A stretch of 64,000 bases of DNA from Lama glama (lineage: Eukaryota): NCBI GenBank assembly GCA_028534125.1, contig CM052816.1:3288001-3352000 (forward strand), written 5' to 3'. Under the pieces are notes generated by a model. The model did not search any database, had not been told where the DNA came from, and worked only from the letters and a program-made list of their open reading frames with translations. Within the stretch, counting starts at the first letter, position 1, and each line of letters opens with the position of its first letter. Of the stretch, positions 37,001-40,000 are shown in pieces. Position numbers and translations under genes: made by a program.

Positions 37001-40000
37001 CCTGAGGAGAGAACCAGAGTGATGAAGGGCAGGGCCATCTGGCTCCACCTGACCGCTGAGGGCAGGCCGCTCCTCCCCGTTCCCGCGGGGAGGAGGACAC
37101 TGCTGGCCCACTGCGGGGGCCTGGGCCTCCGTGGACACAGGCAAGGGGCGTGGCTGTGCTCTGAGCACTGTTGAACCCCGACAGCAAAGGGCAGGTGCAA
37201 AAGGGCTCAGAGCACCCTCCGCTGCTCCCCTCTGCCAGGCGCCAGTGATCTGATGGAGTCCACCTGCCCAGGGCTCTGGGGAGGGGGGAGGGGCTGAAGT
37301 GGCCCCTCGGCCCCCTGCCCGGGCTGGGCGTCCTCGCGGGAGCCGAGAGACATTACGGCAGGCACTCACTTGGACTTGTTCTCTTCATAGTGAGCACTGG
37401 TCTTAATGTATCTGGCCAGCTCTATCTGCATGTCGCCGAAAAGGGGCACCACCTGCAGCTGCTGCAAAGGAAGCAAACACAGCGTGTGAGACACGGAGGG
37501 AGGGCCAGGCGGCTGCCTTCCACTGGGGGAGGCAGGCCTGCATGCGTGCCTCCGGGCCGACCCCTAGTTTCTGCTTCCAGTGATGCTACCGTGTGACCCT
37601 GGAACCACAAAGAGCCCCAGCCAGCGTACAGGTCCTCCCCTGACTCCAACCATCCCAATGTTCCAGCAACCGAGCCCAGAGAGGCAGTGACTTGTCCAAG
37701 GTCACCCAGCAGACAGAACAGATGAAGGATAAGGACCAGACGGCCTGCCTCCTGGGGCAGTACCTTTTCTGCTCTAATTTTCGTGAGATTAGAGGATCCT
37801 TGCTGCTTAGAACTGTGGACTAGAAGTGGGTATCTGCATGTCACTGGCGGGGGGTGGCCCTCATAAGAAACTCCACAATGTGAAGGTGTTGAAAAACAAC
37901 CTAACACCAGAGGGCAGGCAACTGCCATGCGAAGACCAGGACAAATGCAGAGGAGGTATTTACTGCCTGCTTCTGACGCGCTAGGCACTGTGCCAAGCAC
38001 TTCAAAACCAGAGGGTGTTCGGGCAGTGAAACTGTTCCGTATGATGCCCTAATGATGTGATACACTTGTCAAAGCTCATAGAACACACAAGGCCAGAGCT
38101 ATCCCTACTGCAAACTATGGGCTTATTAGGGTGGCAACGACGTGTCAATGTAGGTTCATGGACTATAACAAATGCAGCCTTTTACTGGAAGGCTTCGATA
38201 ATGGGGGAGGTTGTGCGTGAGTGGGGACCGGGGGTATCTGGGGAACCTCTGCTCATTCTGCTCACTTCTGCTGTGAACCTAAAACTACTCTAAAGAATAG
38301 TCCATTAAACAAAACAGAAAACAGTATCTCAGTCCATATAAGAACCCTGTGAGGGCAACACTATTCTCATTTCCATTTCACAGATGGAGAAACTGAAGCT
38401 TCAACAGCTTAAGTGATTTTTTTTCCCACAAAGTCAGACCAGCTAGAAGCCAGGGAGTCAGGACTATAACCCAGGGCTCTGACTCACTTAAGAAATCCCA
38501 CTGAATCCTCAAAGGAACACTATAAAGTAGGTCCCCTTAGCGTCCCTATTTGTCGGGCTGGTAACTCAGATGCATAGAAGTTCTGTGACTGTCCCCACGT
38601 CACGCAGCTATGAAGTGGAGTGTGAGACTAGGACCCAGGGCTCAGGGAGGCGAGCTTACGGGCTTCCCTCCACCCCCACCTCATTTGCGCAGACTTAAGG
38701 CAGGGGCAGACTCTGCCAGCTCTCCCGAGAGGAGCCCTGTTCTCGTCTGGGGCATCTTCAGGGAAAAGGGAGTTCTAGCCTTGAAAAGAAGCTAAGCCGA
38801 GCCACGGGGTGCCTCTGGGCGACGTATTCCTCCCCCAGCTCCTACGAGTCAGTGGGACTCAGGCCCGGCCACACCTTGGAGGGGTTCCGCTTTTAATTTA
38901 AGCTGGTTTTCCCACATCTGACCTCAGAGGCTCCACTCCAGACCTGAAGTGCCTGATGCCGGAATAAACTGACAACATGGAATTCAATTCCAGAGTAGGA
39001 AACCCCTTTGAGAAAACCTCAAAGGCAAACCGGAAGGTTTTATTGTTGAAGATTTGGAGCCAAAAGATCAAATCTCCAAAGCCCTGGAACGAACTGAGTG
39101 CAGATGAGGCATTCTGCCCAGGGCAGGGGCGAGTGAGGGGGCCTCTGGTGGGCTGCGAGTTTGCGAATGTGAATCAATTTAAAATCCAGTCTTTAATCCC
39201 CCTGCTTCTGTGAGCTCTGGTTTATACTGAAAATTAAAGCAGGTGCTATCTTCTCCGATGCCCCTCTTTCTATAGACAGCAGGGGGTTTCAGGAAAGGGG
39301 AAAAGTAGTACACAGAGAGGATCATGAGGCCTCCCAGCCGAACCCCCGCTGAACCCCAAGACGCGAGCACGTGTCTGACTCACCCGACCCCGGGCAGCTG
39401 GAGGCCCTGTTGCTCTAGCCTCCTCCTCTTCTTGGGGTCTTTAGAGCTACAGTTCAACCAACAAGCCCCACTGCGAGCTGGCTAATTTCATTCCTTTCCC
39501 GAGAGAGACCCGCACCTTGGCCCCCTGCCCCAGTCCCTGCCCCAGTCCCCGCCCCAGGTGCTGACCTTGAAGAACTTATCAATTTTGCTGAGGTTGATTC
39601 TTTTCTTGGCGTCCAGTTTGTAAATGTTACTGACATTTCCATCCATCAGGTAAAGACCAAAACCCATTACCTGAGTGAGAAGAGGCAGAGCCAGAAGTCA
39701 GTCACAGTCATCGGAAAAGTTTCAAAAAGTCAAGAAAAGCAGATCTGTGCCTGTGTACACACCCTCCCCCAACCCCGTAGCGACACTATTACAAAAACCC
39801 ATGTGTCTTCAAAAAGTAATAATAATAAAGGACATATAGGTCTAATTTCAACCAGAAATTTGATTTCTGTGAAGAAATGCAGGGGACCCTTTAATATATC
39901 ATTATGGTGGCACTTCTTGAGTCTATCCCAAAGGCCAGAGTCTGTGCTTAGGGATTTAACAAAGCATTACCCTTAATTCTCACAACAATCTTATGCGTCA

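Follow-up and report, generated by a model that had tools for sequence, protein, structure and literature searches.

Does the hairpin that carries the K/E editing site of CYFIP2 serve solely as a substrate of ADAR2, or does it also, by pairing the 5' splice site of the same exon, delay removal of the downstream intron? The question is raised by a 64,000-nucleotide (nt) stretch of llama DNA (Lama glama, assembly GCA_028534125.1, contig CM052816.1, positions 3,288,001 to 3,352,000), hereafter the window, in which CYFIP2 is encoded on the minus strand. Coordinates are those of the window, and signed positions are counted from the 5' splice site (donor) of the K/E exon. An original prediction, made from the bare sequence, had described a hairpin in which both the edited codon and the donor are paired, and had proposed that U1 binding and editing compete, that editing must therefore precede splicing, and that it may be coupled to intron retention or to the use of an additional downstream exon. 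We conclude, with a probability of roughly 85%, that the hairpin is the substrate already known to be edited by ADAR2 in CYFIP2 pre-mRNA, on which editing runs a race with splicing, and that burial of the donor should slow splicing.

The edit replaces lysine with glutamate at residue 320 (K320E). Few recoding edits are conserved, as this one is, between birds and mammals, and the control of its level is of consequence for the developing and ageing brain. The site is said to have been reported originally by Levanon et al. in 2005. Published accounts report K320E editing as conserved in the brain of mouse, pig, macaque and human, as brain-enriched in human and macaque, and, in chicken, as both brain-enriched and increasing with age, in line with the prediction's description of a conserved, brain-enriched ADAR event. 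A 2025 preprint links K320E to axon and spine maturation.

The hairpin at the end of the CYFIP2 K/E exon

The K/E exon (37370..37461, minus strand) is 92 nt long and is the ninth coding exon of our gene model. It encodes 30 residues, contributes two bases to the codon after them and is followed by an intron of 1818 nt (35552..37369, minus strand, donor GT at 37369-37368) and by the next constitutive exon (35434..35551, minus strand), whose translation begins (K). The encoded peptide is identical at 30/30 positions to the solved CYFIP1 chain 3p8c_A (residues 301-330), which makes the lysine residue 320 but leaves the paralogs CYFIP1 and CYFIP2 undistinguished. Gene identity was therefore assigned through a protein search with another exon of the same gene (7875-8108), which returned 653 proteins at E <= 0.001; this exon shares 97-100% identity with the named CYFIP2 of many vertebrates, compared with about 86-88% for CYFIP1-like matches. 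Judged by this similarity, the gene is CYFIP2, not CYFIP1. The gene model, obtained by tblastn with one matched protein followed by refinement of the junctions, comprises 21 stop-free coding exons in the window, with the ATG at 56329. It places A37404 at nt 958 of the coding sequence, the first position of codon 320 (AAG, Lys, 37404-37402) and 35 nt upstream of the donor, so that the codon number given by the original prediction holds. Deamination would convert AAG to IAG, read as Glu, and A37404 is the adenosine expected to be edited in llama, its position being the published -35.

The 75 nt between 37416 and 37342 (minus strand) are predicted to form a single hairpin of -22.7 kcal/mol. The exon arm (37389..37416, positions -47 to -20) faces an arm that consists of the last exon base and intron positions +1..+28 (37342..37370), with 23 inter-arm pairs, of which 21 are Watson-Crick and two are G-U. 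The loop of 18 nt (37371..37388) is made of exon sequence; two weak additional pairs inside it are missing from the centroid structure. All of these elements, from the coordinates and the sequence to the number of pairs, the loop size and the buried GUGAGU, are as the original prediction had given them.

Two parts of the duplex matter here. Toward the loop, all six bases of the donor GUGAGU are paired, intron +1..+6 with exon -21..-26; across the 5' splice site as a whole (CAA|GUGAGU, -3..+6, 37364..37372), every base from -1 to +6 is predicted to lie in this stable local stem, paired with exon -20..-26. Away from the loop, the target A37404 pairs with U37355 (intron +15) and closes a helix of six pairs (+15..+20, 37355-37350) beside a small internal loop. 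The structure thus provides what site-selective ADAR substrates require, an imperfect duplex at least some 20 bp long in which the target adenosine lies, and the intron arm would be the editing complementary sequence (ECS).

This geometry agrees with the published one. Licht 2016 (PMC5291252) describes Cyfip2 as having a single editing site, K/E, at -35 relative to the donor, and puts its ECS some 10-20 nt into the neighboring intron; the window has the site at the same -35 and the partner helix at +15..+20. Moreover, the reverse complement of that study's pre-mRNA primer occurs in the window as intron +14..+33. Searches for other structures in the neighborhood gave no Rfam match at E <= 1 in 36900-37700 and, in a search for a long double-stranded partner, no inverted repeat of at least 25 nt within 34000-40500.

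Conservation and stability of the two arms

To compare the arms with those of another CYFIP2 gene, we searched with a degenerate pattern of the exon peptide, which found one locus (L001) in metagenome contigs and none in the genome contigs searched or in viral contigs. L001, a metagenome contig carrying the orthologous exon and the start of the intron, is the one distant ortholog on which the comparison rests. The exon arm shows 0/28 differences from L001, compared with 8/63 in the remainder of the exon (Fisher p = 0.046); on inspection, the eight are all synonymous, and two of them fall in the loop. On the intron side, 2/22 positions differ in +7..+28, compared with 39/60 in +29..+88 (p = 4.6e-6), so that conservation ends sharply between +28 and +29. 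The ECS arm is thus located in the adjacent intron and, in this ortholog, is conserved well past the splice consensus. Both intron differences (+14 and +25) fall at positions that are unpaired in the window fold, and through one of them L001 gains an A-U pair; L001 folds into the same hairpin (-24.3 kcal/mol, z = -3.22).

The same llama genome provides a control. On another contig, the paralogous CYFIP1 exon (L003) encodes the same peptide with differences at synonymous sites and is followed by the donor GTAGGC; neither a complementary intron arm nor such a hairpin was found at this locus, which folds into a different structure (z = -0.96). Taken together, the comparison with ortholog and paralog supports selection on both arms.

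We also compared the K/E donor with the other donors of the gene, folding each of the 21 in the same frame from -47 to +28. The K/E donor had the lowest z (-3.32), followed by -1.37 for the second lowest. The mean unpaired probability of its 9-nt splice signal was 0.12 in the 75-, 200- and 210-nt contexts, within a range of 0.11-0.69 for the other donors; donor 12 is nearly as paired (0.11-0.22).

Editing, splicing and the surrounding gene

Once transcription has proceeded about 28 nt into the intron, the exon bases -47..-20 would fold onto -1..+28 to give the imperfect 23-pair duplex, and ADAR2 would then deaminate the adenosine at -35 (37404), placing Glu instead of Lys at codon 320. Because half of the duplex is intronic, editing is possible only on unspliced RNA, and its level is set by a race against intron removal, as experiments in the literature show. 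In the minigenes of Licht 2016 (PMC5291252), a weakened 3' splice site increased editing of mRNA (from 26% to 37%) as well as of pre-mRNA (from 52% to 66%), and in neurons treated with a splicing inhibitor the endogenous transcript was edited more. It is thus experimentally established that editing requires the intron and comes before splicing. Separately, the splicing factor SRSF9 has been reported to repress CYFIP2 editing outside the brain.

The contribution of the buried donor is suggested by the fold. The loop-side helix would hold the entire GUGAGU, and the hairpin would have to open before U1 binds, which should slow the splicing step and lengthen the time available for editing. Taken alone, this splice-site helix has an energy of -10.7 kcal/mol, compared with -6.8 kcal/mol for the bare duplex with the 5' end of U1, which makes delayed U1 binding plausible. 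Competition between ADAR and U1, as put forward by the original prediction, has a published counterpart in the proposal that ADAR2 binding interferes with the U1 small nuclear ribonucleoprotein (snRNP) at the Gria2 R/G site, a proposal extended to other substrates (Licht 2016, PMC5291252). In a 2024 Genome Research paper, on the other hand, Cyfip2 splicing efficiency fell in the brain of Adarb1-/- mice, from which the authors concluded that 'editing promotes splicing', and steady-state editing was higher in mRNA than in pre-mRNA. Whether editing favors or hinders splicing is thus a point on which the data conflict: pre-mRNA was more edited than mRNA in the 2016 minigenes, and the 2024 in vivo data show the reverse.

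Several results weigh against the proposed role of the hairpin or limit what supports it. The lower splicing efficiency of Cyfip2 without ADAR2 is the opposite of what plain competition between ADAR and U1 predicts. Nor does the edit itself appear to expose the donor: with inosine parameters the fold changes from -22.7 to -23.2 kcal/mol and splice-site accessibility is unchanged at 0.119. The energy of the hairpin is less striking than it looks. The 75-nt fold has z = -3.08, with 1/200 shuffles as stable, for boundaries picked after the fact; the 101-nt stretch that the original prediction had singled out for folding (37330-37430) reaches a z of only -1.09, with 23/200 shuffles as stable. Furthermore, 3856/25112 (15%) of the 75-nt windows on both strands, and 6% of GC-matched windows (n=6112), fold at -22.7 kcal/mol or below. 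Folding energy by itself is unremarkable, and it is the comparative results that carry the case. These, in turn, consist of conservation only, as no paired position varies between the window and L001 and hence no covariation is seen in the two sequences; of the conservation and compensatory changes anticipated for the intron arm, the former was found and the latter were not. Finally, among 24 public sequencing runs, 14 DNA runs contained 0.91-0.96 of the words and six RNA runs 0.13-0.32, and all six RNA runs are metatranscriptome or gut libraries, none from brain.

The strongest competing explanation accepts the hairpin as an ADAR2 substrate and nothing else: the donor would be paired because the ECS lies so near the end of the exon, and the loop-side helix would just extend the duplex for ADAR2 binding, with no measurable effect on splicing. 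In its favor, the K/E exon occurs in each of the 72 proteins covering the site (chosen, however, through a motif that lies in this exon) and its donor fits the consensus at 8/9 positions; other donors, such as donor 12, are almost as paired, and Licht 2016, in the portions available, puts the ECS at +10..+20 with no claim about the donor. Such an account leaves aside intron +7..+11, which lies beyond the splice consensus, is identical in L001 and pairs with exon -27..-30, as well as the response of Cyfip2 splicing efficiency to ADAR2 loss in vivo. We regard it as a serious contender that is nonetheless somewhat improbable. At the other end stands a stronger version of donor burial, in which the loop-side helix is a selected timer that keeps U1 off until ADAR2 engages, whose action then helps to free the donor. 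If true, this would explain both the lower splicing efficiency reported for Cyfip2 in the brain of Adarb1-/- mice, otherwise unexplained, and the higher editing of mRNA than of pre-mRNA in vivo. The donor would have to be freed by remodelling induced by binding or by a recruited helicase, not by the I-U pair itself. The simpler scheme in which editing opens the hairpin and so licenses splicing was rejected on thermodynamic grounds, as a G proxy for inosine shifts the energy by 0.3-0.4 kcal/mol and inosine does not loosen the fold. We consider a selected timer unlikely.

Two further explanations question the duplex itself. If the first 28 nt of the intron were conserved as a protein-binding splicing element, for example a site for an SR (serine/arginine-rich) protein, their complementarity to the exon would be incidental; repression of CYFIP2 editing by SRSF9 would fit such an element, and conservation with no compensatory change seen cannot by itself tell a constraint on sequence from one on structure. 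An intronic protein site would not account for the opposite exon arm, however, whose synonymous sites are equally frozen (0/28 vs 8/63 differences), nor for the paralog, which encodes the same peptide and has neither arm; besides, ADAR requires a duplex and the literature places the ECS exactly here. This explanation therefore seems very improbable to us. Still less credible is a chance hairpin, with the real editing duplex formed with a distant intronic element. The 15% of equally stable 75-nt windows in the region and the separate conserved stem published as an editing inducer 138 nt downstream lend it some color, but it is opposed by the conservation of the arms with its sharp limit at +28/+29, by the lowest z among the 21 donors, by the fit to the published ECS position and by the lack of inverted repeats of at least 25 nt in 34000-40500. 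Overall, the evidence continues to favor an ADAR2 substrate in which editing and splicing compete for time and donor burial would retard the latter.

The editing inducer element just mentioned is a conserved stem of 116 nt (47 bp) located 138 nt 3' of the Cyfip2 site (Daniel 2017). In the window, its expected place is a GC-rich stretch of the intron (37100..37341, minus strand), for which fold prediction gives z = -1.82, with 10/200 shuffles as stable. A donor-like sequence, GGGCAG|GTGGAC, occurs at intron +107 (37262-37263, minus strand); it may correspond to the cryptic splice site that had to be mutated at +128 in the Cyfip2 construct of Licht 2016 (PMC5291252).

As for the suggested coupling of editing to intron retention or to an additional exon, the reading frame crosses the donor as AA|G TGA GT (37370, 37369-37367), with an in-frame TGA directly after the exon, and the stop-to-stop open reading frame of the K/E exon ends at 37369. 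A transcript retaining the intron would hence terminate immediately after the K/E exon. The additional exon (35830..35869, minus strand), 40 nt long with consensus-like splice sites, has a crude consensus score equal to that of real exons. Its inclusion would shift the frame and lead to a TGA after twelve residues, and it is absent from all fetched proteins. Acceptor/donor combinations scoring at least as high number 18 in 46,743 intron bases, spread over 5/21 introns. We found nothing in the sequence or in the fetched proteins in favor of the use of this exon. Three automatically predicted proteins among those fetched carry other, unrelated insertions after the K/E exon.

At residue 320, the 72 fetched proteins in which the site is covered have Lys in 41 cases, Glu in 30 and Thr in one. 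According to the record names, Lys is encoded in tetrapods, coelacanth, whale shark and bamboo shark, and Glu in teleosts, sturgeon and elephant shark. Glu in ray-finned fishes has already been described (Fresard 2015), whereas Glu in the elephant shark may not have been described before.

Several other features of the locus came to light. A pyrimidine tract followed by AG lies just upstream of the ATG exon (56352-56380, minus strand), indicating at least one non-coding exon further 5', so that the exon numbered 10 by the original prediction and exon 9 of the literature would be one exon counted differently. The 17th coding exon has a GC donor, gag|GCAAGT, at 20692 (minus strand), making the following intron a GC-AG intron. 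Exactly 500 N occupy both 31449-31948, within the intron after the 12th coding exon, and 62740-63239; both runs may be assembly gaps or withheld sequence. A short tandem repeat at 61808-62179 (minus strand), upstream of the ATG exon, translates as SFLPSFLP... whichever of the three frames is used. Some automatic gene models (P0048, P0088, P0090) combine CYFIP2 with a protein bearing kinase, SH2, SH3 and PH domains, probably because the predictor merged a neighboring kinase gene.

Comparison with known systems

In MAPT, an example of hairpins that tune splicing by sequestering a donor, the 5' splice site of exon 10 lies in a local stem that limits access of U1 and regulates an alternative exon. 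The donor of the CYFIP2 K/E exon is likewise predicted to be stem-paired; the CYFIP2 exon, however, appears constitutive, and its known output is the level of editing.

Among editing substrates, the GRIA2 (GluA2) R/G site at exon 13/intron 13 is alike in that an exon-intron hairpin on the pre-mRNA is edited by ADAR2 and that editing rises with weaker splicing. ADAR2 binding has been proposed to hinder the U1 snRNP there, as considered here for CYFIP2. At GRIA2, however, the edited base is at -2 and inosine alters the splice signal, whereas in CYFIP2 the edited base is 35 nt away, in a separate helix. The Q/R sites of FLNA and FLNB likewise combine ADAR2, intronic partners and coupling of editing to the splicing of the adjacent intron, but the direction differs: loss of ADAR2 increases the efficiency of splicing in Flna and Flnb, where editing leads to retention, and lowers it in Cyfip2.

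The closest known system is the CYFIP2 K/E site itself as described by Licht 2016 (PMC5291252), with the same gene, codon, -35 distance and ECS position, and with a primer that matches intron +14..+33. There is no substantive difference from the window; the available text, in which the exon is called exon 9, does not state that GUGAGU is paired. A limited literature search, in which Licht 2016 was the only match, turned up no published text that places the Cyfip2 donor inside the stem. The structure, the intronic partner and the race between editing and splicing are thus already known from published work. To these, the window adds confirmation in another genome, a paralog control from the same genome and the explicit point that the donor lies in the stem, a minor addition that might account for the dependence of this intron's splicing on ADAR2.

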